64,000 nucleotides of DNA from Candidatus Multivoradales bacterium (GCA_965223325.1 CBDCWI010000002.1:2624001-2688000); one strand, 5' to 3'; positions 1-20,116 are shown, counted from the stretch's first letter. Notes: generated by a model from the sequence alone, not told the origin. A program made the numbers and translations.

Positions 1-427
1 CCAGGAGCCGAGCCTCGCGCCGAAAGCGGGATGCGCGTTCGGGCGAATCTGCCAGGCCAGAACGGATCACTTTCAAGGCCACTCGGCGCTTCAGGTTGGA
101 GTCTTCGGCCAGGAAGACTTCGCCCATTCCGCCCTGGCCCAACGCCCGCAGCACCCGGTAGTGGCCGAGCGTCTGGCCGACCAGTGGCCTCTCGCTTACT
201 CCGGATCGCTCACCAGCGAGTCGGCGCCAGTGGGAATCAAGCAACGTCAACGGATCAAGCGAGGGATCCTCTTCACAGTGTCGGCGAAGACGCTCGACCT
301 CATCCAGGAGAGAGAGGTCGCTGCCACAGGCCTCTTCGAGGAAGGCCGCTCGCTCCGATGCCTCGAGATCGAAGCAACGACGCAGGAGCGAATCGACCCT
401 CTCAAAACGCTCAAGCCCTGCAGCCAT
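1..427 (-). CDS. Ser/Thr protein kinase, N-terminal part (runs off the window start)
   Basis: Not in the ORF track. Manual translation from ATG at 427: MAAGLERFERVDSLL...RAAFLEEACGSD...GHYRVLRALGQGGMGEVFLAEDSNLKRRVALKVI...RFRREARLL, i.e. Hanks kinase subdomains I-III. Confidence 0.9.
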   Translation of the reverse strand, partial: MAAGLERFERVDSLLRRCFDLEASERAAFLEEACGSDLSLLDEVERLRRHCEEDPSLDPLTLLDSHWRRLAGERSGVSERPLVGQTLGHYRVLRALGQGGMGEVFLAEDSNLKRRVALKVIRSGLADSPERASRFRREARLL

Positions 428-481
428 GGGAGTAGCTTACAGCTCGGCAGACACGGCCTCTGAAAGACAGATGAGCCTGCC

Positions 482-1969
482 CTACTCCCTGCTATCGCTC
501 CAGCTCGACGGCTGCCCTGACTCGAAGTCGTCCGAGAAGAGACTCAACAGGAAGCGCTGGCCTCTGACCTCGGCATCGGAGGCCTCGTCCTCGGAACTCC
601 AAGTGATGAACAGGTCGCCCGGGGCTACCTGAACGATCTGGACCCGACCTTGATCGCCAGCGGTTCTGGTGTTGACCTGGAACTGATCACCAAGGAGGGC
701 GCCATCTGAACCCACGCGCTGCGCCTGGATGCTGCGCCCATCACTGTCGGAACCGGGGCTGCCAATGCTCACCCAAGCCACGAGATAGCTGCCATCGGGC
801 AGCGCAGCAGCGACGGGATTGTGCTGCTTGCTCGTCGTATAGGTATTGACCTGAAACACTTCGGTCAGCGACTGATCTCCGTCGTATAGCCGAGCGCGGA
901 TGCTCTTGTTCGACTGGTCCGAGCCGTTGGAAGGATCGCTCTCCCAGACCACCAGGTGGCGCGCGCCCCCGAGAAGCTCTAGTGCCACCGAGGGATCTTC
1001 CTGCGACCCCGCCGTGACGTCGTTTACGACCTGTACCGGTCCAAGTGGTGTCCCGTCGACAGCCAGCCAGCGCGAATGAATATCCGTCGGCCATCCGTCA
1101 GCACAATCGGTTACCCCCTCTACATGCTCCCAAGGAACAATCAAGCCCACGTCGGAGCTCCCAACGTTCGATACCGCTGGAGTCGTCGAGCGGATATCCG
1201 GGTCGGCCGGCGCGTCTCGTTGGTCGACATGCACGTTCGAGACCTCGGTACCCGAGTCGTCGAAGTGGGTCCATCGGATGCGCTCGTAGAGGAAAAAGGG
1301 CCTACCCTCGCGACGCTCATCCTGCCGCCGGTCGCAATGCAGGTCGTCGTTCGCAGAAGTATCCCAGACCACGGTGAAACCGTTGCCTGGGAGGTTCGCC
1401 AAAACCGGGGTTCCGTACTCGCCAAGCAGATCGGCGCCGAGGAGGACGAAATCAACCTGCGGTTCGGGTGCTGTGACGTTGACGTCGGCGACGTTTGTCA
1501 GCGAGTCATCGACCCCGTCACTGCGACCCTCGACCCACAGCACACGAACTCGTCCACCAGCCGCCGGACTCGCTCCGAGAAGATGGCAGCCTAGGTCGTA
1601 GGGTGACGTGCGCCCCACGTCGCAGCTTGCGACCTCGATGGGCGACCCGAGCGGCTCGCCTTCGGCGCCAAACTTTGCTGCCATGATGCGAACCGTTTGC
1701 AGTTCCCACAGGGGCGGAGGCACAGCCGGACCGTCATCCCACACCACGACGAGGTGTTCATCATCGAGGGAGGCCGTCGCACGGTACTCGTACGAGATAT
1801 GCGTAGAGCCGGCGCTGATGTACTCAGCAAAACTGAGCCCGGTGACCAGGCTTTGCTCATCCCCAACCGGCACGAGCCCCTCACCCGCGTTAACGGTCGC
1901 AGCACCAGCAAACAGCAGTGCACACCAGATCTCCAGGCAACGTCTGGCATTCATCAGCGCCTCCTTCAC
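482..1969 (-). CDS. Secreted protein with FQVNT-type repeats (probably beta-propeller-like) and a C-terminal FxDxFE motif
   Basis: Signal peptide; repeats FQVNTYTTSKQHNP..LVAW, FQVNTRTAGDQ..FITW, QVVNDVTAGSQEDPSV..LVVW; ends LFSDDFESGQPSSWSDSRE. Confidence 0.75.
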   Translation of the reverse strand: MKEALMNARRCLEIWCALLFAGAATVNAGEGLVPVGDEQSLVTGLSFAEYISAGSTHISYEYRATASLDDEHLVVVWDDGPAVPPPLWELQTVRIMAAKFGAEGEPLGSPIEVASCDVGRTSPYDLGCHLLGASPAAGGRVRVLWVEGRSDGVDDSLTNVADVNVTAPEPQVDFVLLGADLLGEYGTPVLANLPGNGFTVVWDTSANDDLHCDRRQDERREGRPFFLYERIRWTHFDDSGTEVSNVHVDQRDAPADPDIRSTTPAVSNVGSSDVGLIVPWEHVEGVTDCADGWPTDIHSRWLAVDGTPLGPVQVVNDVTAGSQEDPSVALELLGGARHLVVWESDPSNGSDQSNKSIRARLYDGDQSLTEVFQVNTYTTSKQHNPVAAALPDGSYLVAWVSIGSPGSDSDGRSIQAQRVGSDGALLGDQFQVNTRTAGDQGRVQIVQVAPGDLFITWSSEDEASDAEVRGQRFLLSLFSDDFESGQPSSWSDSRE

Positions 1970-2335
1970 TTGGTGGCTGCTCCAGCCTCCCGATCCTAGC
2001 AGGTGGGAGCCACGCGCGACGGCCTACCAGGCCGCTCTGCACTCCTATCTGGACGGGAGGGAAGCTGCGCTCGCCAGAACCGCCTGGTGCGGACGGCTCG
2101 GGCCTCCGTGATAGAAAAACGCCCTAGCAATACCTGTCAAGGCGCTGCCTATAGGTACCGATGGAGCAAGGGGCACCGGGTTCCACCCGCCTCGGGTGAG
2201 GGTTCGGGGCCACCATGGGTAGGCCAGCTCGTCGCCGCGAAGCACCGGACTCTGAGGTCTGTCCTTGTCCGGAGGGGGCCGCGAGCCTCGGCTTCCGCTG
2301 TTTGCCATGACTGCAACCAGAAGGGGATTCGGAAC

Positions 2336-3820
2336 ATGGATCAGTACCTCGTGCCTACACCAAAACAACGAGCGGTGCTTCTCCTCCTGCCGCTCGTCGC
2401 CGCGGCCCTGTTGACGACGACTCGGCCGCTCGAGGCCCAGGAAACAAACGCCACCAACGCCCTGGGAGGCATTCTGGGGACCTGCAGCAACATGGTCTTC
2501 GAGGGCAATGGCAACGCCGCCCCGGACCTGTTTGCGCGCTGCAGCGAGATCGTGTTTCGTGGCGACCTGGACTCGGCCATCGTCGTCTCGCGCGATGAGA
2601 TCACCGCCCAGGGACACCACGCCAACGAACTTGCCGGGGAGCAACAGCGCAATCTTTCGTTGCGGATGAGCGAGCTTCGTCGGGGAGGTGGAACTTCGGT
2701 CGCCCACCTGTTCGGATCGCTCGATACCCGTACCCACCCGGCGCTCGCAAAAGCGTCCATGGCACAGCAGGTGGGTGGTGCACCCGTCGACGACCAGGCG
2801 AGCCGGGTGGGCCTGTTCGTCAACGGCGAGGCGAGCTTCGGTGACCGCGACGCTCAGGGCAACGATGTCGGCTTCGACATCGACACCATGGGAATTACCG
2901 TAGGCCTCGACTACCGGTTTTCAGACCGCTTCTTCGGCGGCATCGCCCTTGGCCTGTCCGAGACCGACGCCGACCTGACCGGCACGCAGATGTTCGCCGG
3001 CAACGGCCGCGGCACCCTCGATATCGATGGCGTGAGTGTCTCCCTCTACGGCAGCCTGAGTCTCTCGGACACCTGGTTCCTGGAAGGCAACCTGACCTCC
3101 GGGCAGAACGACTACGACACGCTGACCGAGATCAACTACGACATCGGGAACGTGACGGCCACCGTCGAGAACGGTCAGATCGTTCCGATCCTGCTCGGCG
3201 GCACCACCTCGGTGCGTCAGCAGGCGGTCGGTGAAACCGAAGGCGACCTCTTGTCCGGCCGACTCGGTATCGGCAACGAGTGGCGCAGTGGCGCCTGGGG
3301 TATCCAGACCGGCGTCAGCGCCACCTATACCGAGGTCGAGATCGATGCCTATGACGAGCGCATGCTCGGCCAGGGTGCCGGCAGCGAGTTGGCGATCGGC
3401 GTCGACGACCGGGAAATCGAATCCCTCATTGGTGAGTTGGAGCTCTTGTTCTCCTATACGAACCTGACGAACTGGGGTGCCTTCGAGCCGGTGCTGGCGC
3501 TGGGCTACAAGAACCAGTTCGAGGACGATCCGCGCGTCATCGGAACCGAGCTCGTCTCGGATCCGAATCGCGGCAACAGGAACTCGGTCGCCTCACCGGG
3601 CCATCCGCTACAAGACGTCGCGGGACTGCCGCCGGGCACCTACCCCAAGGACCTCACCGTGCTGACCGAGGAGCCAGAGGGCGACTGGTTCGTAGCCGGC
3701 CTTGGCTTCACAGCGGTTTTTCGAGGCGGCAACCAGTTCTTCATGTTCTGGGACACCTACCTCGGTCACGATGTGCTTTCGCTCAACCGCTTCTCGGCAG
3801 GCTTCCGCCTGGAGTTCTAG
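2336..3820 (+). CDS. Autotransporter-type outer-membrane beta-barrel protein with a very short passenger
   Basis: ATG at 2336 after AAGGGGA; signal peptide; amphipathic strands (GITVGLDYRFSDRFFGGIALG); C-terminal aromatic BAM signal (AGFRLEF). Confidence 0.85.
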   Translation: MDQYLVPTPKQRAVLLLLPLVAAALLTTTRPLEAQETNATNALGGILGTCSNMVFEGNGNAAPDLFARCSEIVFRGDLDSAIVVSRDEITAQGHHANELAGEQQRNLSLRMSELRRGGGTSVAHLFGSLDTRTHPALAKASMAQQVGGAPVDDQASRVGLFVNGEASFGDRDAQGNDVGFDIDTMGITVGLDYRFSDRFFGGIALGLSETDADLTGTQMFAGNGRGTLDIDGVSVSLYGSLSLSDTWFLEGNLTSGQNDYDTLTEINYDIGNVTATVENGQIVPILLGGTTSVRQQAVGETEGDLLSGRLGIGNEWRSGAWGIQTGVSATYTEVEIDAYDERMLGQGAGSELAIGVDDREIESLIGELELLFSYTNLTNWGAFEPVLALGYKNQFEDDPRVIGTELVSDPNRGNRNSVASPGHPLQDVAGLPPGTYPKDLTVLTEEPEGDWFVAGLGFTAVFRGGNQFFMFWDTYLGHDVLSLNRFSAGFRLEF

Positions 3821-3880
3821 CGTTTCATCGGACTCCGGGGCCCTCCCCCGCCGGGCCTGCTCGCTAAACTGCGGGTCTCC

Positions 3881-8164
<4,284 letters not shown>

Positions 8165-8179
8165 TAGGTTGAGCGAATC

Positions 8180-9757
8180 ATGCTCCCACAAGGGCTCCAG
8201 GGCCTCTGGCCTAGGCCTTTTCGGTATTGGGTCATCACCGTCGTCAGCCTGCTCGGCTGCTTGTACGGCTCGCTCGTTTCTCCGGTTGGCGCTCAAAGCG
8301 CCACCGACGACGCAGCTCGCTTCGAGGTCGAGGAGTTCGCCATTGTCGACTGCCTCCTGCCGGGGCGGACCACCCGCATCGGCAAGTCGAGAGTCAAAGG
8401 GCCGCGCCGCGCCACGAAGACGAGTGCCCGCGATTGCAACATCCGCGGAGGCGAGCATGTCGCGTACGACCGCGCCGACTGCCGAACGTCGCTTAAGTTC
8501 TGGCAGGACCGCGCCGAAACCGGCGACTCGGAGGCCGCCTTCTATGTCGGCCAGCTGCTCGAGCGAGGGTGTGAAGGGCTGGCGCCTGATCCGAGCAAAG
8601 CTGTCAGCTGGTATGAACGCGCCCTCGAGCACGGTTCTCGGCCCGCGCGACTAGCGCTCGCCGGGCTCTACGATCGCGGCCACGGCGTAGAGAAGGATCC
8701 AGGAAAAGCCATGGCACTTCTCCGCCAAGACCTGCCTGACGAGGTCACCTTGATCGACACGCAAGAGTTCGCTGAACTCGAAAGCGCAGCTCGAAGAGCC
8801 GACGACAGGGCGGATGATCTCGAGCAGCAGCTGCTTAAAGCAGAGCAGCAGCTCGAGGCCAGTGACACCAACCGCGAGACTCTCAGTCGCTCGGTCACCA
8901 GACTGGAGGCGGAGCTCGGCGAGGCGCGCGATCGCCAGGCCAGCACCCAACAGCTGGTCGAGCAACTCGAGAGGCAGTTGCTGGCGCCACCCCCCGAAAA
9001 AGCGCCAAGGCCGACCTCGCTTGACTTCGGCACGTACCACGCCCTGGTCATCGGCAATTCCGACTACCAACATCTCGACCCGATTCCGCAAGCCGCCAGC
9101 TACGCCCAGTCGGTCGCCTCCCTGCTCGAAAGGCGTTACGACTTCCGCGTCCAGCGGCTGATGAACGCCACCTACGAAGCGCTCTACCGCAAGCTCGAAA
9201 CTCTCAGAGGCGAGCTAACAGAAGACGACAACCTGCTGATCTACTACGTTGGAAGCAGCTTTCGCGAATCGGGCCGCAGCTATTGGCATCCGGTCGATGC
9301 CGAAGACGAGGCCAGCCGCTTCAACTGGCTCGAGGTTGAGCGACACTTGTCGAGCGTTATCGACGTCATTCCCGCGCGGCAGCTGCTGGTTGTCGCAGAC
9401 GCTGCGTTCGAGGGCGTGCGGGTGCGCTCGGCGGTGCCACAACTGCCGGTCGGCATGAGCGCGCGCCAGAGGAAGAAGCACATGGAGGACATGTTGAAGC
9501 GCCGCAGCCGTATGGTCATGGCGTCCGGAAAAGGGCCTTCTCCGTTCTCTCCCGCTCTCGTCGGATGTCTCGAAGAGAATCGAGCGATTGCCGGGGCATC
9601 CCGCATCTACGGTTGCGTTCTGGCCAGGATGCGGCAGAACACAAGCTCCGCCAGCTCGGACACCTCGCGCTACGCGCCGATTCGCTGGGGACAGAGTGAC
9701 GCCAACAGCGACTTCTTCTTCGTCCCCACGAAGCCCAGCCGCGCCGGAGCCCACTGA
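8180..9757 (+). CDS. Secreted Sel1-repeat / coiled-coil / catalytically degenerate caspase-like protein
   Basis: Signal peptide; Cys-rich N-terminus; Sel1 repeats (AAFYVGQLLERG, LALAGLYDRGHGVEKD); C14-like domain with YYVGSS and VADAA in place of the HG and DSC motifs. Confidence 0.85.
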   Translation: MLPQGLQGLWPRPFRYWVITVVSLLGCLYGSLVSPVGAQSATDDAARFEVEEFAIVDCLLPGRTTRIGKSRVKGPRRATKTSARDCNIRGGEHVAYDRADCRTSLKFWQDRAETGDSEAAFYVGQLLERGCEGLAPDPSKAVSWYERALEHGSRPARLALAGLYDRGHGVEKDPGKAMALLRQDLPDEVTLIDTQEFAELESAARRADDRADDLEQQLLKAEQQLEASDTNRETLSRSVTRLEAELGEARDRQASTQQLVEQLERQLLAPPPEKAPRPTSLDFGTYHALVIGNSDYQHLDPIPQAASYAQSVASLLERRYDFRVQRLMNATYEALYRKLETLRGELTEDDNLLIYYVGSSFRESGRSYWHPVDAEDEASRFNWLEVERHLSSVIDVIPARQLLVVADAAFEGVRVRSAVPQLPVGMSARQRKKHMEDMLKRRSRMVMASGKGPSPFSPALVGCLEENRAIAGASRIYGCVLARMRQNTSSASSDTSRYAPIRWGQSDANSDFFFVPTKPSRAGAH

Positions 9758-9814
9758 GAGCCGCGACCCGGCGCTCCGGCCAGGGGTGTTCTCGAATCTG
9801 GCTATCATGGGCAG

Positions 9815-10264
9815 ATGAGCACACCACAAGAGAAGATCGAGGCCGATATCAAGGAGGCCATGAAGGCGCGCGACAACGTGCGACTGGGGACTCTGCGGAT
9901 GGTTCTCACGCAGATCAAGAACGACACGATTGCCAAGGGCGAGGAGCTCACAGACGAAGCATTCCTGGCCGTCGTGCGAAAGCAGATCAAGCAGCGCCAG
10001 GAGGCGGCTTCGCAGTACAAGAAGGGCGGGCGCGAAGAGTTGGCGGCCAAAGAGGAAGCAGAGATTGCGTTTCTCGAGCCCTACTTGCCGGCACAGGTTC
10101 CCGAGGCCGAGGTGCGCGAGGCGGTCGCGGCGTTCATCAGCGAGAACGGTCTCGAGGGCATGCAGTCGATGGGCCGGGTGATGGGCGCGATGAAAAAGCG
10201 CTTCGGCGCAACCGCCGATGCAGGGATGATCAGCGGCATTGCGAAGGAAATCCTGAGCGGCTGA
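9815..10264 (+). CDS. GatB/YqeY domain protein
   Basis: IKEAMKARD..RLGTLR, KQIKQRQEAASQY..GGREELA.KE..EI..L..YLP.Q, MGRVMG. Confidence 0.92.
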   Translation: MSTPQEKIEADIKEAMKARDNVRLGTLRMVLTQIKNDTIAKGEELTDEAFLAVVRKQIKQRQEAASQYKKGGREELAAKEEAEIAFLEPYLPAQVPEAEVREAVAAFISENGLEGMQSMGRVMGAMKKRFGATADAGMISGIAKEILSG

Positions 10265-10283
10265 AGCACGTTCACCCCACCTC

Positions 10284-12203
10284 ATGAACCGAGTCATTGT
10301 TGGCACCGCAGGCCACATCGATCACGGCAAAACGACGCTCGTCAAAGCGCTGACGGGAGTCGACTGTGACCGTTGGCAGGAAGAGAAAGAGCGTGGCATC
10401 ACGATCGATCTCGGCTTTGCACACCTGACGGCAGACGGTCCTGGTGGTGAACCACTGCAGATTGGTTTTGTGGATGTTCCCGGGCATGAGCGCTTCGTAC
10501 ACAACGCTCTCGCGGGCCTTGGAGGCATTCGTTTGATGATGCTGGTAGTGGCGGCTGACGAAGGAGTGAAGCCGCAGACCCAAGAGCATCTAGCGATTTG
10601 CTCATTGCTCGACATTCCGGCCGGCCTGGTGGCGCTCTCCAAGAGCGATCTGGTCGACGGAGAGTTGCTCGAGCTGGCGCAGCTGGAACTCGAAGAGGCG
10701 CTCGTCGGAACGCCTTTCGAAAAGGCACCAATCGTTCCGGTCTCGGCAACAACGGGGGCAGGTGTGCCCGAGCTGCGCGAGCAGTTGGTGGCTCTGGCGG
10801 CCGCTGCCCCGGCCATCACGCCACTCGAGCAGCTACCCGCGCGCCTGCCGATCGATCGCAGTTTCGTTCTGCAGGGTCTCGGCACGATCGTGACGGGGAC
10901 TCTCATGACTGGGCGAATCAGCGCCGGCGACCAGCTCGACGCCCTTCCAGGTGACCTATCGGTGCGCGTGCGCAGCGTGCAGGTGCACGGCGAAGAGCGT
11001 GAGCATGCGGTTGCTGGCGAGCGCACTTCGCTTCAGATCACCGGCGCCTCGAGCGCGGAACTGTCGCGCGGCCTCCACCTCGTCGAACCCGGGCGATTCA
11101 GGAGCTCGCACAGTTTGCTGGTGCGCCTTGACCTGCTTCCCAACGCGCCAAAGTCGATCCGGGGCTTTGCGCCGGTGCGCTTTCATCTGACCTCGAGCGA
11201 AAGAGTTGGCAAGATGCGACCGCTCGGAGTCGACAAACTCAACCCGGGCGAGCAGGCGGTGGTGGAAATCCGTCTCGATCGGCGCGTACCGGCGGTGCGC
11301 GGCGATCGGTTCATCGTGCGGAGGCCATCGCCGCAAACCACGCTCGGCGGCGGTGTGGTGCTCGACCCTCTCTGGCTGAGGAGACGGGGAGCCTCACTCG
11401 AAACGGCTCTGGCAGGCCTTGGAGGACCCGACGCCGAAGCTCTCTCGACCTGGGTTCGACTCGCCGGTGCGGCGGGCATGGAGCCCGCCGAGCTGGCGCG
11501 GCGGATCGGTAACCAGGAAAGCGTGGTGACGACGCTTCTCGAGCCGGCCATCGAAATCGGAAACGTGTTTCTCGTGCCGGCCGGCGCCGGGCATGGAGCA
11601 CGGTACGTACACAGCGAGTCCTGGCAGACCATCGAGGTGCGCGCCCCGCAGGTGCTCAAGGACTACTTCAAGCGCGAACCGCTGACCCATGGCATGCCGA
11701 AGGCCGAAGCCAAGAAACGCCTGGCCCCTGGCCGCGCCGCGCTCCTGGCCGACGCCTGGCTCGAGCGCCTGGCGGCGGCGAAACGCATCGTGATCCGCGG
11801 CGACCTGGTCGACCTGCCGGGACGCGCAAACCCGATCGCCGGTTCCGATGCCAAGCTCTCGGCGTCGATTCTCCAGGCTTTCGAGCAGGCCGGCCTCGCT
11901 CCCCCGTCGCCGAACGACGTTTGCCACCAGCTCAACGCCAAAAAGCAGATCTTCGACGGGGTTCTCAAGTACCTCATCCGCGACGGACGACTGGTACGCC
12001 TGCCCGGGGACCTTCTCATCGCCGCCGCTGCAGTCGAGACGCTGGTCGCCGACGTGCGAGGAGCGAGCTGGCAAGGGTTCTCGGTGCCAGAGTTCAAGGA
12101 CCGCTTCGGTTTGACCCGCAAATGGGCAATACCGCTGCTCGAGCATCTCGACAAACTCCGGGTCACGCGGCGCCAGGGCGATCGCCGACAGGTGCTGCGC
12201 TAG
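10284..12203 (+). CDS. selB: Selenocysteine-specific translation elongation factor SelB
   Basis: [33 protein letters not shown]-terminal winged helix [20 protein letters not shown]. Confidence 0.97.
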
Positions 12204-12273
12204 CGGGTCGTATGATCACGCAGAGGCGGAAGCGGAAGGCCCACACCAACACATCCAGCTGCATGGAGTCAGG

Positions 12274-14745
12274 ATGAGCGAGATCTGGAAAGTCGCGAGG
12301 CGGCTCGTGGAGCGACGACCCCTAAACAGCATCGCCACGGTGATCATCCTCGCCATGGCGCTTGCTCTCGTACTTCCCACCTACAGCCTTCGTGACGGCG
12401 CACTCGACCGTGGGCTCCCGGTTCCCAACGGCAAGCGCATCGTCGCCCTGTCGTCGGGCGCGAGCCCGCTCTATCCGTCACGCATCGACGACTTCGCCTT
12501 CCTCGCTGCCGAAATGGAGTCGCTCGAGGAACTGGCGGCCTTTCGAAGCTTCAACACTTCGGTAACTCCCACCTCAGGCGTTACCGAGGTCCTGCACGGC
12601 TCGTACGTCTCCCACAACACCTTCTCGATGTTGGGAGTCGAACCGCGACTCGGGCGGCCATTCGACGCTGCCGACGCCCTTCCCAGCCAACCCGACGTCG
12701 CGGCGATCAGCTATGACTTCTGGCAGAGGCGCTTCGGCGGTGATCCAGGTGTTCTCGGGAGCGAAATCATCGTCAACCGCGCGCCGGCCTCGATCGTTGC
12801 CGTCATGCCAAGAGACTTTGCCTTCCCCATTCGACAAGACATCTGGGGTGTCCTGCGCGCCGAGGGGCGTTCCTGGTCGAAGTCCGGGGTGTTCGTGATT
12901 GGGCGTTTGCCCGCCGAGGGAGAGGCCGCGATGGAAACCGCGCGGGCCGAGTTCACAGCCCTCGTTCCGGCTCTCAACGAAGCCCTACCGAACCCAACCG
13001 ACGGCAGCTACCCAGAACGCCAGGCCTATCTCGCATCCTTCGTCGAGTCCGTCATGGACCCGGGTACCGTACGCGCGCTGCGCCTGATGACCTTTGCCTC
13101 GCTGTTCGTCTTTCTGGCGGCGTGCGTCAACGTTGCACAACTGCGCGCCGCCTCGGCGCTCGGCAACCTTCACCAGACCGCGATTCGCCGCTCGCTGGGA
13201 GCGAGCACTTTCGCCATCGTGCGCGAGCACCTGCTCGAGGTCTGCTTGCTGGTACTCGCCGCCGCCTCGCTTGGCCTCCTCGCGTCGTGGGCGGTGATTC
13301 GAGTGCTCGGCGACGTCGTCATCAACGGCAGCCCGCTCCAGAACCTGTTCTGGGTGGACCTCCGCCTGGACACTGAGATCATTGCCTTGGCCCTGGGTCT
13401 CGCTCTCGCCGGCGCAGCTCTCGGTGGCCTCCTACCGGCCCTCCTCGCAGCCCGCGAGGGCAAGAAGGTCCGAGCAATCGGCGGTTTCGCTGGACGAGCC
13501 TCGGGCTCGAAGAAACGCGCTGCCATCGCCAAGACATTCATCGCCTCCGAGGTCGCGCTGACCCTGGTCCTACTGGCCGGAACGGCCGTCATGGTGCGCG
13601 CCTCGATCGATCTCCTGCAGCCGAGGCTCGGCTTCAACCCCGACAACCTGGCTAGCGCCGTGATCTCGTCGTATCACGCTGAATGGCAGAGTGACGAGGA
13701 AGCCGCCGCATTCTCCAAACGCTTCATCGAAACCCTGAACGCCGATCCCGAAGTCACGAGTGCTGCCTGGGGCAACGCACCCTGGCACTCCTGGACCCGC
13801 GTTCCAATGTCGGTCGAAGGCGAAACCTGGGATACGCCCAGTCCCACTACCCACGTGCAGCCCGGTGCACCCATCTTCTCTGACATGCCGAGAGTCAAAC
13901 GCCTCTCCGGCAACGTGCAGTACCTCGAAACCGTAGGCCTCGAGCTCCTCTACGGGCAACGGATCGAACCCCGTGACCACACCAGCGCCCCAGGCGACGA
14001 GGGCGGTTTCGCCAGAGCAATGGTCTCGAAGTCGCTAGCCGAAGATCGCTTCGGCGGACAGCCCCTGGGCAAGACCTTCACCCTGCACAGCAACAACCAG
14101 CAGGAGACATACCAGATCGTCGGCGTCGTCGCCGACCTCGGAACCGACCACGAAGCTTTGGTCCAGAACCCAGAGCACGCCGTCTTCACTGAAGGCCGGG
14201 CACAAGACGGGGGCTTGATCACCCTGCGCACAAGAACCGGAAGAGCCGCCCTCGCCCCGATCATCAACCGCGCCATCGCCAAGGTCGACCGCCGCGTCGG
14301 CAGCCCCCGTCAAGAAACCTTCGACCAGGCCTTCGCCGCCCAGACCTGGGTCCAGAGAAGCCTCACCCAGGCCTTCAGCACCTTCGGCCTCGCCACCCTC
14401 ATCCTCGTCATCGCCGGCATCTACGCCCTGCTCTCGAGCATGGTGCACCGCCGCACACGCGAGTTCGGAATTCGCACCGCCCTGGGCGCCCTACCGCGAA
14501 ACCTCAGACAACTCGTCCTCAGCGACCTCACCACTGGCCTCACGATCGGTCTCCTCACCGGCACCGCCATCTGCATCGGCCTGGCCCGCTACCTCGAGCC
14601 CGTCGCCCTCGGCTATCACCAACACCTCGCAACCGCCGTAGCCATCGCCGCCCTCCTCCTACTCGCCGCCTCACTCCTCGCCAGCCTCAAACCCTTGAGA
14701 CGCGCGACAAGGATCGACCCAGCCGACTGCATGCGTGCCGAGTAG
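12274..14745 (+). CDS. Duplicated MacB/FtsX-type ABC permease (ADOP-like)
   Basis: Two periplasmic+FtsX repeats; LGRPF, WQRRFGGDP, ACVNVA, RRTREFGIRTALGA, RRATRIDP..MRAE. Confidence 0.88.
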   Translation: MSEIWKVARRLVERRPLNSIATVIILAMALALVLPTYSLRDGALDRGLPVPNGKRIVALSSGASPLYPSRIDDFAFLAAEMESLEELAAFRSFNTSVTPTSGVTEVLHGSYVSHNTFSMLGVEPRLGRPFDAADALPSQPDVAAISYDFWQRRFGGDPGVLGSEIIVNRAPASIVAVMPRDFAFPIRQDIWGVLRAEGRSWSKSGVFVIGRLPAEGEAAMETARAEFTALVPALNEALPNPTDGSYPERQAYLASFVESVMDPGTVRALRLMTFASLFVFLAACVNVAQLRAASALGNLHQTAIRRSLGASTFAIVREHLLEVCLLVLAAASLGLLASWAVIRVLGDVVINGSPLQNLFWVDLRLDTEIIALALGLALAGAALGGLLPALLAAREGKKVRAIGGFAGRASGSKKRAAIAKTFIASEVALTLVLLAGTAVMVRASIDLLQPRLGFNPDNLASAVISSYHAEWQSDEEAAAFSKRFIETLNADPEVTSAAWGNAPWHSWTRVPMSVEGETWDTPSPTTHVQPGAPIFSDMPRVKRLSGNVQYLETVGLELLYGQRIEPRDHTSAPGDEGGFARAMVSKSLAEDRFGGQPLGKTFTLHSNNQQETYQIVGVVADLGTDHEALVQNPEHAVFTEGRAQDGGLITLRTRTGRAALAPIINRAIAKVDRRVGSPRQETFDQAFAAQTWVQRSLTQAFSTFGLATLILVIAGIYALLSSMVHRRTREFGIRTALGALPRNLRQLVLSDLTTGLTIGLLTGTAICIGLARYLEPVALGYHQHLATAVAIAALLLLAASLLASLKPLRRATRIDPADCMRAE

Positions 14746-14897
14746 GGCGAGCCAACCAACGGACTCATGGAACGAGCATCGTAACCATCCACAACCATCC
14801 ACACGGCGCCAGGTCAACGCCCCCACAAGCGCGATGAGCCGAAGGCTCGAGCGCACCCCAGACCCCAACGAAGAGCGTTCCGGCTAGGACACCGAGA

Positions 14898-15042
14898 GGT
14901 TGAGGGCCTGAGGCATGCGCCAGGGAGCGGTCAGCCGCAAACCATCAGCGCCAACAACGCAACGCCACCAAGGCCCAACCAAACGAGCACACCGGCCCGG
15001 CCCAGACCCGGCGCGGAAGGCGCATGCCTCCGGTCCTCAACC
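14898..15042. repeat. Intergenic 24-bp imperfect inverted repeat
   Basis: ggttgagggcctgaggcatgcgcc (14898-14921) versus ggcgcatgcctccggtcctcaacc (15019-15042), 22/24 complementary, between convergent genes. Confidence 0.7.
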
Positions 15043-15137
15043 GGCGACGACGCCCCACACCTCCGTCCACCTCACTCAGTCTCTCTCTCTCAACTCCCTC
15101 TCTCCTCCCAGATCTCCCGATCCCAATCTCCAACCGA

Positions 15138-15596
15138 TCAAGACGAGGAACGCTCGCAGTCCTGCTCGCAGTACTGTTTGACGGCGTCCATATCCGACTC
15201 AATAGCCCGCGTCACCATGCCCTTGATCAACGGGTTCACCAGTCGCGCAATGAACTTGTGCGGCCGCGCGTCCATCACCATCTCGAGCTCTGATGACTCG
15301 GCTCCACTCGGGCTCACGGTGAAAACCGTGTCCCAGATCGTGCCACCGGTGTCCGACACCATGCGGACTCGTTCATTCGGAACGTACTCCTTCACTTCGA
15401 GCTCCGTCGACGCCTCGCGGCCATTCATCACTCGGGTTTCGCGAAAGCGTGTACCCACGCCGCGCTTCTCCTCGGTGAGAAACTCGATCTCCTTGATCGA
15501 TGGTGACGCTTGCTTGAAGCTCTCGATGTGAGCGACGGCATCGAAGACACGGTCAACGGGCGCATCGATCGTGCGCCGAACGGTAGTCCGAGACAT
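15138..15596 (-). CDS. SRPBCC (polyketide cyclase/START-like) family protein
   Basis: TIDAPVDRVF, GVGTRFRETR..GRE; GGAGAGG RBS. Confidence 0.88.
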   Translation of the reverse strand: MSRTTVRRTIDAPVDRVFDAVAHIESFKQASPSIKEIEFLTEEKRGVGTRFRETRVMNGREASTELEVKEYVPNERVRMVSDTGGTIWDTVFTVSPSGAESSELEMVMDARPHKFIARLVNPLIKGMVTRAIESDMDAVKQYCEQDCERSSS

Positions 15597-15648
15597 GGCC
15601 TCTCCTACAGGTAGTTTTCGAGGGAAGACCTGTCATGATCTCATCATC

Positions 15649-16545
15649 ATGCGAAACCCCGCTCTTGCCCCGTATGCCAAGCGTTTGGCTATGCTTTCCG
15701 GCCCGCTCCTCGCCCTCCTCGGCGCCACCTCCGGGCTGGCGCAGCGCCCCACGGCCGAAGACATCGAACGGCAGCTCGCCACTCCGCGACCCATCGAGGC
15801 GGTCGACAGTGTGTGGATCGAAGAGCTGACCTGGATGGAAGTTCGCGACGCCATCAAGGCCGGTAAAACCACCGCCATCGTGGCTTCGGGCGGCATCGAA
15901 CAGAACGGCCCGTATGTCGTGACGGGCAAACACAACGTGCTGATCGAAGGCACCTGTGAAGCCATCGCCCGACGCCTTGGCGACGCCCTGTGTGCACCCA
16001 CCCTTCGGCTGGTTCCCGAAGGCGGGATCGACCCGCCCTCGGGGCACATGCACTACCCCGGCACGTTCAGCGTCCGCGACGAAACCTACGAAGCGATTCT
16101 CGAAGACATGGCGGGAAGTCTTCGCGCCCATGGCTTTCAACACATCGCATTCCTCGGTGACAGCGGCGGCAATCAGGCTGGCATGAAGAAGGTCGCAGCG
16201 CTTCTGACCGAACGGTGGAAAGACACGGAGTCACCCACCGCGGTGCATTTCATCGCCGAGTACTACGACCACCCTGGCCTCTTGGCCTACCTCGAGAACG
16301 ACCTGGGCATCAAGCAACCCGAGAACGACGGCCTGCACGACGACTACGCCATCAACTCGATGCTGATGGTCGTCGACCCAACCAGCGTTCGCTACGAACA
16401 ACGCAAGAAGGCCGGCAAGGCAACCATCAACGGCGTCGCGCTCGATCCAATCGAGGAGACCCTCGCGATCGGTCGCAGGCTGACTCAGAGACGCGTCGAC
16501 CTCGCCGTCGCCAGCATCGAGAAGGCACGGTCGAGTACCAGGTAG
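15649..16545 (+). CDS. Creatininase family protein with signal peptide
   Basis: IEELTWMEVRD, GGIEQNGPY..GKH, YPGT, GDSGGNQ; start position uncertain. Confidence 0.85.
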   Translation: MRNPALAPYAKRLAMLSGPLLALLGATSGLAQRPTAEDIERQLATPRPIEAVDSVWIEELTWMEVRDAIKAGKTTAIVASGGIEQNGPYVVTGKHNVLIEGTCEAIARRLGDALCAPTLRLVPEGGIDPPSGHMHYPGTFSVRDETYEAILEDMAGSLRAHGFQHIAFLGDSGGNQAGMKKVAALLTERWKDTESPTAVHFIAEYYDHPGLLAYLENDLGIKQPENDGLHDDYAINSMLMVVDPTSVRYEQRKKAGKATINGVALDPIEETLAIGRRLTQRRVDLAVASIEKARSSTR

Positions 16546-16571
16546 CCGTCGCCCGCGCCGCCTCTTTCCCG

Positions 16572-18608
16572 TCAGCTACCGAACGACCGAATGACCTCGA
16601 CAAGACGGGCGATCTGTTCTTCGGAGAGGGACTCTCCCCACTCAGGCATCACGTCGCTCAAACCGTGTTCGGCACCACCGTCCCGAATGACAGCCGCAAT
16701 GAGCTCGTCGCTGACACTCGCCTGCCAGCTGCGATCGCTGAAGTCGCGCGGCTGCACGCTCTCCTCGAGTAGATACTGGCCGTCGACGCCGTGGCAGCGG
16801 CTGCAAAGCAGGCCGTACATGTCTTCGCCGGTGGCTACTGCTTCGAGCAGCGGCGCATTCGACCGGCGCAGCTCGTAGATCCCGCCCTTCCTTTTTGCCG
16901 ACGACAGCACCAAGAGGCGAATCCGATTGCCATAAGGAACCACGGCGCTGATCACTCCCAGACCTGGCGGCCGTACCGCAATGCGCTCGACTTCCCCACC
17001 GTCCAACTCGAGCGCAAAGACCTCTCCTGAGACGCAGTCGCCAAAGATGTAGCGACCGTAGAGAGCAGCCGAGCCACGGCTTCGATCGACGAACCCTCCG
17101 AGCGCACACGCGCGCAGTCCGTCGTGCGGGTACTCATAGAGTGGGAAGCGAAGCTCACCGGGCAGGCTCGCCACATCGTCTAGCAGCTCCCGGTTCCAGG
17201 CCTCCCGGTTGACTCGCGAGCCCTCGTACAACGCCCAGCCGTAGTTGCCCCCACTTTCGACGACGTTGATCTCCTCGATCAACTCCTGTCCGACATCCGC
17301 CGCCCACAGGCGGCCATCGGCCTCGTCGAACGAGAACCGAAAGGCGTTTCTGAACCCTATGGCGTAGAACTCCTCGAGTGCTTCGGCTTGGCCAACGAAC
17401 GGGTTCGAAAGAGGAATGCGGTAGCCCTTTGTGGTCCCGTCAACTGGCTGGCGCCCGATCGCCTTGCTCGCCGATGGATCGGTGCCGCCCCCAACATCAA
17501 GGCGAAGAATCCCGGTGTAGAAGTTCTTCGACAGCGTCTGGCTGTTCTCGAAGCTGTCGTTGACACCACCCTCGTCACCCATTCCAACGTACAGGTAGCC
17601 GTCCGGACCGAAAGCCAATCCACCACCGTTGTGCCAACCGTGACGGTTCAGCATCTCAATCAGAACCTGCTCGGCCCCGACGCGAAGCGGCTCGGCCGTG
17701 GTGATCGGGAACTGCGAGAGTCGAAAACTCGAGGCCGCGTCTTCCTCGGCAGTCATGTAGGTCAGCAGTAGCGCCTTCTGATCGGGCCGAATGGCAAAAC
17801 TGAAGGCACCACGTTCAGCGACAAGGTCACCAACCTCCGCGCGTAGATCGAGCACCGCATCGTGCGCTGGGTCCACACCGCCTCTGGAAAGACCGTTTTC
17901 GTCGACCGAAAGCAGAAGCCCGCTACGATCGAGAACCAGAAAACGTTGCGGCACGACGGGGTGGGCCTCGATCCACATCGGGTCGGTGATCACCAGGTCT
18001 TCCATCACCAGCTCGAAGGCCCAGGCCGAGGAGACCCCGCCGCGGGCTAAACGGGCGCTCTTGATCTCGTCTACGTAACCCAGGTAGGCGTCGTCGAACA
18101 GCACTGGCCGTGCCACCGACAGGACTGCTGCGAGAGCTGCAATCCACAGAATCGGCCAACGCAGAAGCCCGGAAACACCCGGCCACCCGGTGCCCGCGGT
18201 CTCGAGAGCCCTCCAGCGCACCACGCCCGAAACCAGGAACCCGCCAACGGCCACCAGTCCCACGAGAGCCGGGAGTTCGTTATGGCCCCAAGGCGCGGGG
18301 AAGAATGGCGCCGCAAAGGCTTTGTAGAGAAGAATCGCAGCGAAGTCAGCGAGCAATCCACGAACGGGTGCCTCGAACCGCCAACCGCACAGCGCGTCCA
18401 ACCGCCACCGGAAGCTAGCCAGGGCGCCAATCACGAAGCGCAACCCCGCCAGTGCGACGACGAACAGGGCGGCCAACGGAACAACCACCGGAACGTGCCG
18501 GACAAACACGAAAAGAGCGCTCGCAACGAGCGCACAGAACGCCAGGTGCAGCGCTCCAGCCAGGCCGGCCCGGAGAGGACTCGGCTGAGGATCGCGAAGG
18601 TAGGGCAA
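16572..18608 (-). CDS. Membrane-anchored glucose/sorbosone (PQQ-type) dehydrogenase with C-terminal cytochrome c
   Basis: N-terminal TM helices; HNGGGLAFGPDGYLYVGMGDEGG, GFRNAFRFSFD, GGNYGW; CSRCH plus a distal Met (VMPEW). Confidence 0.88.
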   Translation of the reverse strand: MPYLRDPQPSPLRAGLAGALHLAFCALVASALFVFVRHVPVVVPLAALFVVALAGLRFVIGALASFRWRLDALCGWRFEAPVRGLLADFAAILLYKAFAAPFFPAPWGHNELPALVGLVAVGGFLVSGVVRWRALETAGTGWPGVSGLLRWPILWIAALAAVLSVARPVLFDDAYLGYVDEIKSARLARGGVSSAWAFELVMEDLVITDPMWIEAHPVVPQRFLVLDRSGLLLSVDENGLSRGGVDPAHDAVLDLRAEVGDLVAERGAFSFAIRPDQKALLLTYMTAEEDAASSFRLSQFPITTAEPLRVGAEQVLIEMLNRHGWHNGGGLAFGPDGYLYVGMGDEGGVNDSFENSQTLSKNFYTGILRLDVGGGTDPSASKAIGRQPVDGTTKGYRIPLSNPFVGQAEALEEFYAIGFRNAFRFSFDEADGRLWAADVGQELIEEINVVESGGNYGWALYEGSRVNREAWNRELLDDVASLPGELRFPLYEYPHDGLRACALGGFVDRSRGSAALYGRYIFGDCVSGEVFALELDGGEVERIAVRPPGLGVISAVVPYGNRIRLLVLSSAKRKGGIYELRRSNAPLLEAVATGEDMYGLLCSRCHGVDGQYLLEESVQPRDFSDRSWQASVSDELIAAVIRDGGAEHGLSDVMPEWGESLSEEQIARLVEVIRSFGS

Positions 18609-18694
18609 AGAGATGACTCAGATTATCCCGGATCACGCGGCGTTGTCGTTCGACCTCGCTCGCCCCCCGGGATGGGATTGCAACCCCGAGAATA

Positions 18695-18736
18695 CCGTTT
18701 CGAGGCCCCACAGATCCGTTCCAGGCCTCGAGACGG
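18695..18736 (-). terminator. Possible terminator or stabilising hairpin downstream of the HTTM gene
   Basis: ccgtttcgaggcc / ggcctcgagacgg, 12/13 complementary, just after the stop at 18743; weak U tract. Confidence 0.4.
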
Positions 18737-18742
18737 AATCCC

Positions 18743-20116
18743 TCACCGCCGAGAAACGACGACAGCCTGCGCCTGGCTGGTCTTGACACGCAACAGGTCT
18801 CGCGTGGGATCGATCAAACGCCTCGCGGCCCGGCCGTTCATGGAGACCCAGCAGTCGGCGTAGGCGACTCCGTCTTCATGCTCCAGGTGAGCGGCGATCC
18901 TCTGCGCGCCCTCGATGATCATCGTTGGCTGATAGGCCATGCGCTCGGCTTGCAGCGGCGTGAACCAGTCCTCGGGCAGAACCGAGCGACAGTTTGGCGA
19001 AAGCTCCGGAGCGGTCGTCGGACCGTCGCAGTAGTGGTAGCGCAGGCTGCCGGACTTCTCGTTCAACATCACCCGCCACGAGAAGCGGTAGCCGGCCTCG
19101 CTCCAATTGACGTCGTCGGAGAGCGCCAGATGGCGCAGCGGCAGAACCAACTGCACAACGAGCAAGAGACCGACAGCGAAGGCGCCGCGTCCAGAAGGAA
19201 CCCAGGGAACTGAAAAGAGGGATCGGCTGTGACCGGAACGTCCCCTCAATGCTCGCAACCGTGCCAACACGTTACGCGGCCAACTCGGTTCGAAGAACGT
19301 GGTCGCTCCCAGAACCATCATCCACGGAAAAATGCCGAGTCGTGGAAACAGTGCCCAGGTCAACGAGTGAAAGACCACCACCGCGACGAAGGCCGGAACC
19401 CTTAGGCGCCGCCATGAGAGCGCAAAGGCCACCGAGAGATCGAAGATCGCCCCGGCCCAACTCATCAGAAGGGGCAACGCACCCAGGCCGAGCAGCGCGC
19501 CGAAGGGCCAACCATCGGCGCGCTGCGGTAGCCAGATGGCGAGCGGCTGACCGGCCAGCCAATCCGGGTTGAGCTTGGCGACGCCGGCAAAGAAGTAGAC
19601 CAGGCCGACCTGGGTGCGCACCGCAAAGAGCAGCCATCGGGGAACCAGCGAGCCTCTCCCATCACGCGTCAGCCGTGGCACCTGGCCACTCGCCAGGAGA
19701 AGGAACACGGCGACGATGAGGAAGTAGTGGTGGTTGACGTAGTTGGTTGGATCGAGCAGTTCGACCCAACCGAAGATCACGACGAACACAACCATCGCGA
19801 TGCGGCAGAGCCCCGCACTCACCCAGCTGCCAATCGCAATGAAGAGTGCGGCGAGCGCCGCCAGTGCAAACAGCGGTTCTACCCAAGACGGATCGGGTCG
19901 CGGAATCCATGCGAAGCCGGGGTAGCTGAGATGGATCGGCGACTGGGCGAACTGGCGCGCCGCCCAGCCATAGAACAGGTAGCGTGAAAGCAGGACGCAG
20001 CCCAGCACACCCAGGGCGAGACGAAACACCGCCAATGACGCTCCGTCGACCGGTTGGCAGAGGTGCCCTCGCAGCTCCGTCAACCTGATGCCGCGCCACC
20101 TCGAGGTGCCAATCAT
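18743..20116 (-). CDS. HTTM-domain protein (vitamin K-dependent gamma-carboxylase-like)
   Basis: VDGASLAVFR, YVNHHY, VYFFAGVAKLNPDWLAGQPL, GIFPW, WSEAGYRFSWRVML.EK.G, SMNGR...LIDP. Confidence 0.9.
   Translation of the reverse strand: MIGTSRWRGIRLTELRGHLCQPVDGASLAVFRLALGVLGCVLLSRYLFYGWAARQFAQSPIHLSYPGFAWIPRPDPSWVEPLFALAALAALFIAIGSWVSAGLCRIAMVVFVVIFGWVELLDPTNYVNHHYFLIVAVFLLLASGQVPRLTRDGRGSLVPRWLLFAVRTQVGLVYFFAGVAKLNPDWLAGQPLAIWLPQRADGWPFGALLGLGALPLLMSWAGAIFDLSVAFALSWRRLRVPAFVAVVVFHSLTWALFPRLGIFPWMMVLGATTFFEPSWPRNVLARLRALRGRSGHSRSLFSVPWVPSGRGAFAVGLLLVVQLVLPLRHLALSDDVNWSEAGYRFSWRVMLNEKSGSLRYHYCDGPTTAPELSPNCRSVLPEDWFTPLQAERMAYQPTMIIEGAQRIAAHLEHEDGVAYADCWVSMNGRAARRLIDPTRDLLRVKTSQAQAVVVSRR

Follow-up and report, generated by a model that had tools for sequence, protein, structure and literature searches.

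The three genes at the locus

We analysed a 64,000-nucleotide (nt) stretch of DNA from Candidatus Multivoradales bacterium (GCA_965223325.1, CBDCWI010000002.1:2624001-2688000), hereafter called the window, with positions counted from its first letter. Between positions 2336 and 9757 (+ strand) it hosts three co-oriented genes, which encode an outer-membrane barrel, a kinase joined to a caspase-like protease, and a secreted protein that ends in an apparently dead copy of the same protease domain. Together they may belong to a signalling system that spans the cell envelope. An earlier sequence-only reading of this DNA had described the genes as tightly linked, with gaps of 60 and 15 nt, and the open reading frame (ORF) calls bear this out. 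Gene 1 lies in an ORF at 2003-3820 (+), for which we took the internal ATG at 2336 as the start; the ORFs of genes 2 and 3 were used as called. The features of the three genes are given below, with protein lengths in amino acids (aa). The evidence includes AlphaFold2 (AF2) models, with their predicted local distance difference test (pLDDT) scores, and structural comparisons with VIA-align (VIA).

2336-3820, + strand: gene 1, 494 aa, outer-membrane barrel of the type Va autotransporter kind that has no real passenger (ORF, Pfam, AF2, Foldseek)
2336-2437, + strand: gene 1 signal peptide, residues 1-34, probable cleavage after LEA (hydrophobic segment; cleavage inferred by eye)
2441-2689, + strand: gene 1 junction module, two short predicted helices with Cys50 and Cys69, then a 40-residue linker helix (AF2 model)
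2804-3817, + strand: gene 1 predicted beta-barrel (model strands at 123-458 of the mature chain; Pfam residues 161-416)
3881-8164, + strand: gene 2, receptor-type Hanks Ser/Thr kinase fused to a predicted periplasmic caspase-fold protease, 1427 aa (ORF, Pfam)
3917-4690, + strand: gene 2 kinase domain, residues 13-270, all catalytic motifs (Pkinase 5.9e-46)
4766-7225, + strand: gene 2 cytoplasmic helical region, about residues 296-1115, E/A/L/R-rich (composition, self-BLAST)
7253-7303, + strand: gene 2 single transmembrane (TM) helix, residues 1125-1141, predicted N-in/C-out (hydrophobicity, positive-inside rule)
7442-8101, + strand: gene 2 predicted periplasmic C14 domain with His1260, Cys1310, Asp1209 and Asp1308 (Peptidase_C14 9.4e-25)
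8180-9757, + strand: gene 3, predicted secreted protein with an N-terminal domain, Sel1 repeats, coiled coil and pseudo-caspase, 525 aa (ORF, Pfam, AF2 model pLDDT 85.2)
8180-8293, + strand: gene 3 signal peptide, residues 1-38, probable cleavage after VGA (hydrophobic segment)
8318-8515, + strand: gene 3 N-terminal Cys-pair beta domain, residues 47-112 (alignment A5, profile search, model)
8480-8725, + strand: gene 3 Sel1 repeats, about residues 101-182 (Pfam; model helices 55-136; VIA Z 11-14)
8753-8983, + strand: gene 3 antiparallel helical hairpin, about residues 192-268 (model helices 146-181 and 186-222)
9032-9679, + strand: gene 3 pseudo-caspase, about residues 285-500 (residue comparison; fold matches)

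Gene 1 has a signal-like hydrophobic segment directly after its start ATG, and residues 161-416 match the Pfam Autotransporter beta-domain (4.5e-30). Modelled by AF2 from 55 related sequences, the mature chain (pLDDT 83.4; predicted template modelling score, pTM, 0.82) has helices at 2-20, 28-40 and 44-83, the last of these being the linker, followed by the barrel. The top Foldseek matches of this model are the translocators EstA (1.4e-18), AaaA, NalP, EspP and BrkA. Because of the Pfam match, the helix-plus-barrel model and the translocator matches, we read gene 1 as a type Va barrel with a pore-spanning linker helix. It shares these features with EstA, NalP, EspP and BrkA but differs from them in being fixed beside a periplasmic Sel1 protein and in having no functional passenger. 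About 85 mature residues lie ahead of the linker helix, in place of the exported N-terminal passenger of a type Va protein.

The sequence-only reading had described a barrel with almost no passenger and a Cys pair. This is correct for the window but does not describe the family. The partner barrels of related loci usually bear passengers, at most about 1900 aa long, with 4-12 Calx-beta repeats and Big_1, or with Ig domains of the ASH/HYDIN type. Barrels that have no passenger are found in Zhongshania, Spongiibacter and Salinisphaera loci too, with lengths of 385-446 aa. The Cys50/Cys69 pair upstream of the linker helix is common to most related barrels.

The kinase domain of gene 2 has intact Hanks motifs (GGGGMG20, K42, HRD135, DLG159 and APE186). 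Exactly one hydrophobic segment is found in the protein, at residues 1125-1141, and its N-terminal flank hosts five K/R residues (net charge +4) against one (net charge -1) on the C-terminal side. Because there is a single TM helix with a positive-inside flank, the positive-inside rule supports a topology in which the kinase is cytoplasmic and the caspase domain lies outside. The sequence-only reading had placed a TM helix between these two domains, and one is found there in gene 2, as in each of the 11 kinase-caspase proteins examined. Residues 1188-1407 match Pfam Peptidase_C14, and from this match the caspase fold of the domain is assigned. The His/Cys dyad of C14 proteases, which had been reported as intact, is confirmed as His1260 within YYAGHG and Cys1310 within IADSC.

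Between the kinase domain and the TM helix lies a region of about 820 aa that had been labelled as tetratricopeptide repeats (TPR). It has one TPR match, at residues 725-753, which scores 23.2 bits against a Pfam cut-off of 27, and self-BLAST found no internal repeat in it. On the strength of this single sub-threshold match and the absence of a self-BLAST repeat, we have downgraded the TPR label and prefer to describe a helical or coiled-coil region. The linkers of other kinase-caspase proteins are much shorter than that of gene 2. Among proteins of 784-2498 aa no close full-length relative of gene 2 was found, and the nearest matches there are Sel1-caspases with 33-44% identity over the caspase part.

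Gene 3 had been described as a secreted Sel1/coiled-coil protein with a paralogous caspase domain, and each of these parts is recovered. Besides the signal-like segment, it has a Pfam Sel1 match at residues 117-153 (9.3e-10), and profile searches matched solved Sel1-like repeat (SLR) proteins down to 1.3e-68. Model residues 52-141 align with SLR structures at VIA Z 11-14. The caspase part matches Peptidase_C14 at residues 287-468 (4e-8; 33.7 bits against a cut-off of 21.4). However, the dyad positions are occupied by Ser359 for His and Ala409 for Cys, Tyr308 stands at the position of the alpha1 Asp, and the substrate loop is deleted. Judged by these residues gene 3 is a pseudo-enzyme, although it has the caspase fold. 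We rejected the idea that gene 3 is a lipoprotein (LLGC27), as the lipobox-like Cys27 is not conserved in relatives.

The N-terminal Cys-pair domain of gene 3 (the N-domain, 65 residues) is the most conserved module of the Sel1-caspase family, above the caspase domain itself. In alignment A5, with 52 sequences from several phyla, the mean column identity is 70% and 11 columns, including both Cys, are invariant. It forms four short strands in the gene 3 model (pLDDT about 70). No Pfam model matched the N-domain in the scans made, and a search of the protein atlas gave no usable match. A search with the window's own copy found only 3 proteins because this copy is divergent, therefore the family profile was used instead. 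Out of 1.84 billion, the profile picked up 1110 representative proteins at E<=1e-3, of which 820 reached E<=1e-10, and among the matches listed the domain lies within the first ~230 residues in 148 of 150. Long representatives (n=57) have Sel1 in 57 of 57 cases and Peptidase_C14 in 52, and some members of the family have peptidoglycan-binding or SH3 domains (Pfam). The helical linker between Sel1 and caspase ranges from 78 to 777 aa family-wide (loci L013-L104; median about 220) and may serve as a periplasmic spacer; some long-linker Sel1-caspases have an additional Ig-like stretch. The source names of these proteins are mostly 'caspase family protein', 'TPR repeat protein' and 'hypothetical protein', with a few evidently automatic labels.

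Conservation of the gene linkage

In order to follow the three genes in other genomes we searched the window's own genome and 40 relatives with gene 3. Full-length matches (E <= 3.8e-57) are found in 7 of the 41 genomes (G000, which is the own genome, G001, G004, G030, G033, G035 and G039), and an eighth, G036, has matches to both halves of gene 3. We then took 12 loci from the own genome and seven relatives and mapped their domains by BLAST. A kinase-TM-caspase protein, a Sel1-caspase and a barrel occur together in six of these (L013, L016, L018, L020, L021 and L024). In L014 and L017 the kinase-caspase and Sel1-caspase are present and the barrel is not in the stretch fetched, while L015 and L022 have a Cys-bearing Sel1-caspase, a barrel and a separate kinase. 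L019, at a contig end, has a barrel and a Sel1-caspase, and L023 has a kinase-caspase alone. Gene order and orientation vary between the 12 loci.

A census of the own genome (6.69 Mb) with our own profiles points the same way. It found 49 Hanks-kinase, 10 autotransporter-type barrel and 7 caspase-domain ORFs. All 7 caspase ORFs lie within four such loci, and three of the four Sel1-caspase genes abut one of the only 10 barrels. The linkage of the three genes is not due to chance: the co-occurrence on which the sequence-only reading depended is found in the triads, in the wider loci described below and in this census.

The own genome also holds L015 (C2:1584255-1590211), a locus of what we take below to be the ancestral type. 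Its Sel1-caspase is Cys-bearing and its kinase is separate, and the other members are a Calx-beta barrel of 1271 aa and an OmpA-family protein; one cell therefore contains both layouts. The 49 Hanks-kinase ORFs are a large complement for a genome of this size, and the same profiles found 15 FHA and 3 PP2C ORFs. In a paralogous locus of the own genome an FHA-EAL protein (L013:15503-16639) adjoins the barrel, with cyclic di-GMP turnover as a possible output. In a relative, an FHA-CsgG-SH3 protein (L021:2529-5330) lies between the barrel and the Sel1-caspase, where a curli-type secretion channel is a possible output.

For a wider view, one genome per species was scanned with the Sel1-caspase alignment. 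At least 596 stretches matched and at least 565 were confirmed, of which the best 80 were kept. The confirmed loci are mostly from Gammaproteobacteria (Halieaceae, Zhongshania, Spongiibacter, Ectothiorhodospiraceae, Thiodiazotropha and Xanthomonadales-like genera), and Acidobacteriota, Desulfuromonadales, Brocadiaceae, Nitrosomonas and others are also among them. In the Gammaproteobacteria the Sel1-caspase usually keeps its dyad, and kinase and caspase are separate proteins. The kinase-caspase/pseudo-caspase form was seen here only in Acidobacteriota-type genomes.

The best 80 loci include a Hanks kinase in 53 cases, a barrel in 48, both in 32 and at least one of the two in 69. Where at least 6 kb is available on each side (37 loci), the corresponding counts are 28 with a kinase, 29 with a barrel and 23 with both, leaving 3 with neither. 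The median gap from the Sel1-caspase is 36 nt to the barrel and 864 nt to the kinase. Among the 80 loci, 18 have a PP2C gene and 16 an FHA gene, counts that are probably too low because the profiles had one round. Examples confirmed by Pfam are a protein with two FHA domains (L033:8018-8887), a PP2C (L094:3785-4489) and the FHA-EAL and FHA-CsgG-SH3 proteins of L013 and L021. Of the stand-alone kinases listed, 53 of 58 have one TM helix after the kinase domain, mostly with about 105-160 residues beyond it, and 50 aligned ectodomains are helical and TPR-like in appearance.

Clustering of the leftover ORFs gave a fifth conserved gene, which encodes a lipoprotein-like, alpha/beta-hydrolase-like protein of about 280 aa. 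All 40 members have a G[YFH]SGG nucleophile elbow and 36 of them a lipobox-like motif, while the alpha/beta-hydrolase matches themselves (Pfam/NCBIfam) are weak. It occurs in 37 of the 80 loci as well as in L013, L021 and L023; the window locus has no copy. Examples are as follows.

L013:7837-8691 (own genome C2:1759833-1760690): fifth gene, the sole copy in the own genome
L033:12069-12956: fifth gene
L060:2780-3670: fifth gene

Active and decayed caspase-fold domains

The best solved sequence relative of the gene 2 C14 domain is the MALT1 paracaspase (6.4e-7). MALT1 also heads the Foldseek matches of the gene 3 model (6e-9), at a low identity of 14-18%. This model shows the alpha-beta fold of caspases and haemoglobinases, with a six-strand core. 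VIA-align matches it to metacaspase-4 (Z 20.3), MALT1 (Z 19.4) and caspase-9 (Z 18.6), followed by a legumain-type peptide ligase (Z 15.9), the protease-like domain of c-FLIP(L) (Z 15.5) and GPI transamidase (Z 15.2).

In the available portion of a clan CD review (PMC4357240), the MALT1 pocket for a P1 Arg is formed by Asp365, Asp462 and Glu500. Asp1209 (helix alpha1) and Asp1308 (Cys-2) of gene 2 align with the first two of these acidic S1 residues and are identical to them, and both are invariant in the kinase-borne domains. An invariant Asp of the P..D loop is a candidate for the third, equivalent to Glu500. The same portion of PMC4357240 states that paracaspases cleave after Arg and require dimerisation along beta6, whereas metacaspases are monomers with an eight-strand sheet. 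The general statement of the sequence-only reading, that C14 proteases are activated by dimerisation, thus holds for caspases and paracaspases and fails for metacaspases. Because MALT1 is the closest relative, the rule may apply to the C14 domain of this system, and the six-strand core of the model would permit a beta6-type dimer. We call the domain paracaspase-like, with a probable preference for Arg/Lys. We have not filed it as a paracaspase because it is without the death and Ig domains that flank paracaspases, for which there is no Pfam match in gene 2 or gene 3.

The copies were compared at Asp(alpha1), His, Gly, Asp(Cys-2), Ser, Cys and the SG..P..D..HS.F loop. None of these residues varies in any of the 11 kinase-borne domains. 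They are also invariant in 68 Cys-bearing Sel1-borne domains, save for the loop His (63/68) and Ser (67/68). In 20 Cys-less Sel1-borne rows, one of them cut short, the same residues have decayed to varying degree, and the most decayed copy is gene 3 of the window. By this comparison, the catalytic residues are kept or lost as a block. Wherever both copies of a locus are readable (9 of 9 loci), the Sel1-borne copy has no Cys.

In a quick caspase tree of 101 rows, drawn with a midpoint root, the 14 Cys-less Sel1-caspases of the window lineage form one group, with a support of 98 in the Shimodaira-Hasegawa-like approximate likelihood ratio test (SH-aLRT). They come from the window's own relatives and from metagenome-assembled genomes labelled Acidobacteriota. 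We infer an order of events in which the caspase was duplicated, one copy was fused to the kinase and the other decayed. The Cys has also been lost independently in five gammaproteobacterial loci, three from Halieaceae (L025, L029 and L085) and two from Ectothiorhodospiraceae/Halomonas (L040 and L084). In the latter two every other pocket residue is kept, as if the domain were still peptide-binding.

An active copy beside a dead paralogue is reminiscent of caspase-8 and cFLIP, in line with the c-FLIP(L) match of the gene 3 model. The likeness to MALT1 lies in the sequence and Foldseek matches, the His/Cys dyad, the two acidic S1 residues and the six-strand core of the gene 3 model. Unlike MALT1 and caspase-8/cFLIP, the present system is bacterial, apparently extracytoplasmic, and without death, CARD or Ig domains. 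Closer to home are the cyanobacterial orthocaspases, which are likewise prokaryotic C14 homologues. The available portion of PMC6426788, a survey of caspase homologues in prokaryotes, describes an acidic specificity pocket in orthocaspases and pseudo-orthocaspases, natural dead variants, and some proteins that are proposed to be exported. The dead variants described there have Tyr/Ser substitutions, whereas those found here have Ser/Ala and others. Sel1 and TPR are common partner domains of prokaryotic metacaspases, and TM helices are found in 15% of these, according to the available portion of PMC3501461, another such survey. Neither of these two sources, as far as available, describes a kinase-TM-caspase fusion, an autotransporter partner or an N-terminal Cys-pair domain.

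A possible trans-envelope sensor and its alternatives

The constant partners in these loci are a receptor Hanks kinase, PP2C, FHA, a barrel and a periplasmic Sel1 protein, and on this account we read them as the parts list of a trans-envelope phospho-signalling device. The reading that we favour, and in which our belief and our doubt are about evenly balanced, is that the three genes are a local, derived version of a widespread, undescribed envelope-spanning sensor. This sensor would act through Ser/Thr phosphorylation, by analogy with PpkA and TagQ/TagR. Its ancestral layout would have a type Va barrel, a periplasmic protein with N-domain, Sel1 repeats, coiled coil and an active MALT1-like C14 domain, and a single-pass Hanks kinase whose ectodomain is small and helical. 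This layout would often also include a PP2C phosphatase, an FHA protein and the lipoprotein-like alpha/beta hydrolase. In the lineage of the window the caspase would have been duplicated, with the active copy taking the place of the kinase ectodomain and the Sel1-borne copy decaying to a pseudo-protease.

What the analysis shows is which domains are present, a topology that follows from sequence rules, which catalytic sites are competent and which have decayed, and that the linkage is conserved. On this footing we propose the following course of signalling, in which the contacts between the partners, the cue, the substrate and the output are all conditional. The Sel1 protein would be anchored to the barrel, beneath the outer membrane, by its highly conserved N-domain and its Sel1 repeats. 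A cue in the envelope would bring the pseudo-caspase and the kinase-borne caspase together at the beta6 edge, in the manner of MALT1 dimers or caspase-8/cFLIP. This pairing would set the activity of an Arg/Lys-directed periplasmic protease, and it would also gather the cytoplasmic kinase domains for trans-autophosphorylation. FHA-type readers from other parts of the genome would then take up the signal. In the wider system the caspase fold of the Sel1-caspase would contact the outer part of the kinase, a contact that in the window variant would have become a protease/pseudo-protease pair.

A stronger form of this proposal is that a single dimerisation, between the outer-membrane-anchored pseudo-caspase and the paracaspase-like domain of the kinase, both unleashes Arg-directed proteolysis outside and switches on the Hanks kinase inside, with the N-domain as a new barrel-docking module. 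The system would then be a counterpart, in bacteria and outside the cytoplasm, of the logic of caspase-8/cFLIP or MALT1. This we offer as a speculation that we would rather doubt than believe.

The closest functional parallel is the PpkA/PppA/Fha1 threonine phosphorylation pathway of the Pseudomonas aeruginosa H1 type VI secretion system (H1-T6SS) with TagQ-TagR. In both, a single-pass Hanks kinase is accompanied by a PP2C and an FHA protein, and an accessory protein of the periplasm is, or here would be, kept at the outer membrane. TagQ and TagR are a lipoprotein and a protein similar to formylglycine-generating enzyme (the TagR fold). The accessory proteins have no visible homology to those found here, which are an autotransporter barrel and a Sel1-caspase-fold protein, and the window differs further in that the kinase itself bears a protease. 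No T6SS genes were seen in the neighbourhoods examined. TagQ, TagR, TagS and TagT families did not turn up in the Pfam scans of the neighbours, although no search aimed at these proteins was made. A cognate PP2C and FHA gene in the locus, as in the PpkA pathway, is seen in the wider system only and not in window 1-20000. In the available portion of PMC13713981 the TagQ/TagR envelope complex is reported to act upstream of Fha1 and, after membrane damage, to engage PpkA, 'likely dimerizing the kinase'. On our reading a known type of signalling, in which a receptor Hanks kinase works with accessory proteins of the envelope, would here be assembled from unrelated parts.

Another parallel is the idea of a periplasmic Sel1 protein that is paired with a barrel or a sensor kinase, as in AlgK-AlgE and ExoR-ExoS. 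The Sel1 part of gene 3 has weak NCBIfam matches to AlgK (6e-8; 1.2e-4) and ExoR (6.8e-3), far under the family cut-offs. Unlike in those systems, the partner kinase here is of the Hanks type and not a histidine kinase, and no polysaccharide genes were seen.

Several observations weigh against the proposed sensor. Window 1-20000 has no FHA or PP2C gene by the profiles built here. The N-domain is patchy across the phylum, being found in 4 of 201 sampled genomes, all of the window's class. Neither a kinase nor a barrel is seen in 11 of the best 80 loci, many of them on short contigs. These 80 are the best by the tool's score and no random sample, and related genomes are not independent; in addition, the linkage counts come from profiles that were built from the loci themselves, with score thresholds that we chose. 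The large Calx-beta/Big_1 passengers of most partner barrels also fit an adhesin-centred function. As to the origin of the copies, the kinase-borne rows are split off in the midpoint-drawn tree by a single branch with no support. Finally, the five gammaproteobacterial loci that lost the Cys have a stand-alone kinase and no second caspase in the locus. Because such Cys-less loci exist, proteolysis is not needed everywhere, and the caspase fold may act as a binding module only.

The first alternative is that these are adhesin-maturation genes, in which a periplasmic protease processes or tethers the autotransporter, for example by a cut at the conserved junction of Cys pair and linker or as a transpeptidase, while the kinase tunes the process and the window barrel is a passenger-less remnant. 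This would suit the barrel being the tightest neighbour of the Sel1-caspase, at a median gap of 36 nt, the adhesin-like passengers (Calx-beta x4-12, Big_1 and ASH/HYDIN Ig) and the conserved Cys pair of the junction. Clan CD, moreover, includes transamidases, as is reflected in the GPI transamidase and legumain-type ligase matches of the gene 3 model, and some members of the family carry the peptidoglycan-binding or SH3 domains mentioned above. However, passenger-less barrels (385-494 aa) are retained in the window and in Zhongshania, Spongiibacter and Salinisphaera, which means that what is conserved as a partner is not the passenger. Several lineages keep a barrel although their protease is dead or absent, and a pure processing role leaves the kinase, PP2C and FHA genes unexplained. 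Given the topology of autotransporters, a passenger that has been exported lies at the cell surface, out of reach of a protease in the periplasm. We consider this explanation unlikely.

The second alternative is a conflict or suicide system, in which the kinase senses infection or damage and the caspase-like protease kills, like its counterparts in other caspase-family defence systems of bacteria. The sequence-only reading had left the choice between signalling, conflict and cell death open. The PP2C and FHA genes of related loci favour signalling, while for conflict or death PADLOC gave only generic kinase matches. The kinase domain matches the defence-kinase profiles PD-T4-6 (2.5e-72), mad6, MADS6 and PglW, but these matches span the generic catalytic domain only. 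Genes 1 and 3 have no PADLOC match, so that nothing specific to a defence system is recognised. A patchy distribution with several paralogous copies in the own genome would suit a conflict role, as would a match to the EACC1-associated caspase model; yet the latter scores 88 bits against a cut-off of 140, and the partners are envelope proteins. Furthermore, the protease is predicted to be extracytoplasmic, away from the usual targets of abortive-infection effectors, and no NTPase, nuclease, TIR or other conflict domain was found in the neighbourhoods examined. We regard a conflict system as quite improbable.

That three unrelated genes are adjacent by chance is hardly credible: a scan for promoters and terminators found 0 promoter-like sites, which would suit this view, and was otherwise uninformative, with terminator-like sites only on the - strand and no more of them than in shuffles, but it found no + strand terminator-like site between the three genes, the triad recurs with shuffled order across families and phyla, and three of four own-genome Sel1-caspase genes abut one of just 10 barrels.

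We found no description of the triad, of the kinase-TM-caspase protein or of the N-domain in the literature, within the main texts available and supplementary architecture tables (e.g. of PMC3501461) aside. Neither the triad nor the kinase-TM-caspase protein is described in the available portion of a survey of conflict systems (PMC7159879), and the word 'caspase' is absent from a preprint on a bacterial kinase atlas. Bacterial caspase-family proteases are mostly discussed as cytoplasmic effectors of death or defence. The one described here is apparently active and turned towards the periplasm; it is joined to a Hanks kinase and has a dead paralogue as its partner. Should the sensor work as proposed, the protease/pseudo-protease switch, so far known from animal cell-death and immune pathways, would extend to bacteria. 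About 1100 protein clusters that are now named only 'caspase family protein' would gain a function, and the sensor would be a second example, after TagQR-PpkA, of outer-membrane events reaching a Ser/Thr kinase. In the stronger and more doubtful form of the proposal, a 'proteolytic receptor kinase' would be an undescribed type of trans-envelope transducer and one branch of a system of more than 500 loci. The family is directly testable because it is present in cultured Zhongshania, Spongiibacter, Halomonas, Chromatocurvus and Salinisphaera.

Upstream of gene 1 and divergent from it is an ORF at window 482-1969 (- strand, 495 aa) with no Pfam, NCBIfam or PADLOC match. We dropped it as a possible fourth component, since it has no family match and is unlike the ORF found in the same place in a relative of the same genus. 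Downstream of gene 3 are three further genes, which seemingly have no relation to the system.

9815-10264, + strand: YqeY-like protein (Pfam/NCBIfam scans)
10284-12203, + strand: selenocysteine elongation factor SelB (TIGR00475, 1.8e-97)
12274-14745, + strand: ADOP-family duplicated permease (1.4e-142, under the family cut-off)

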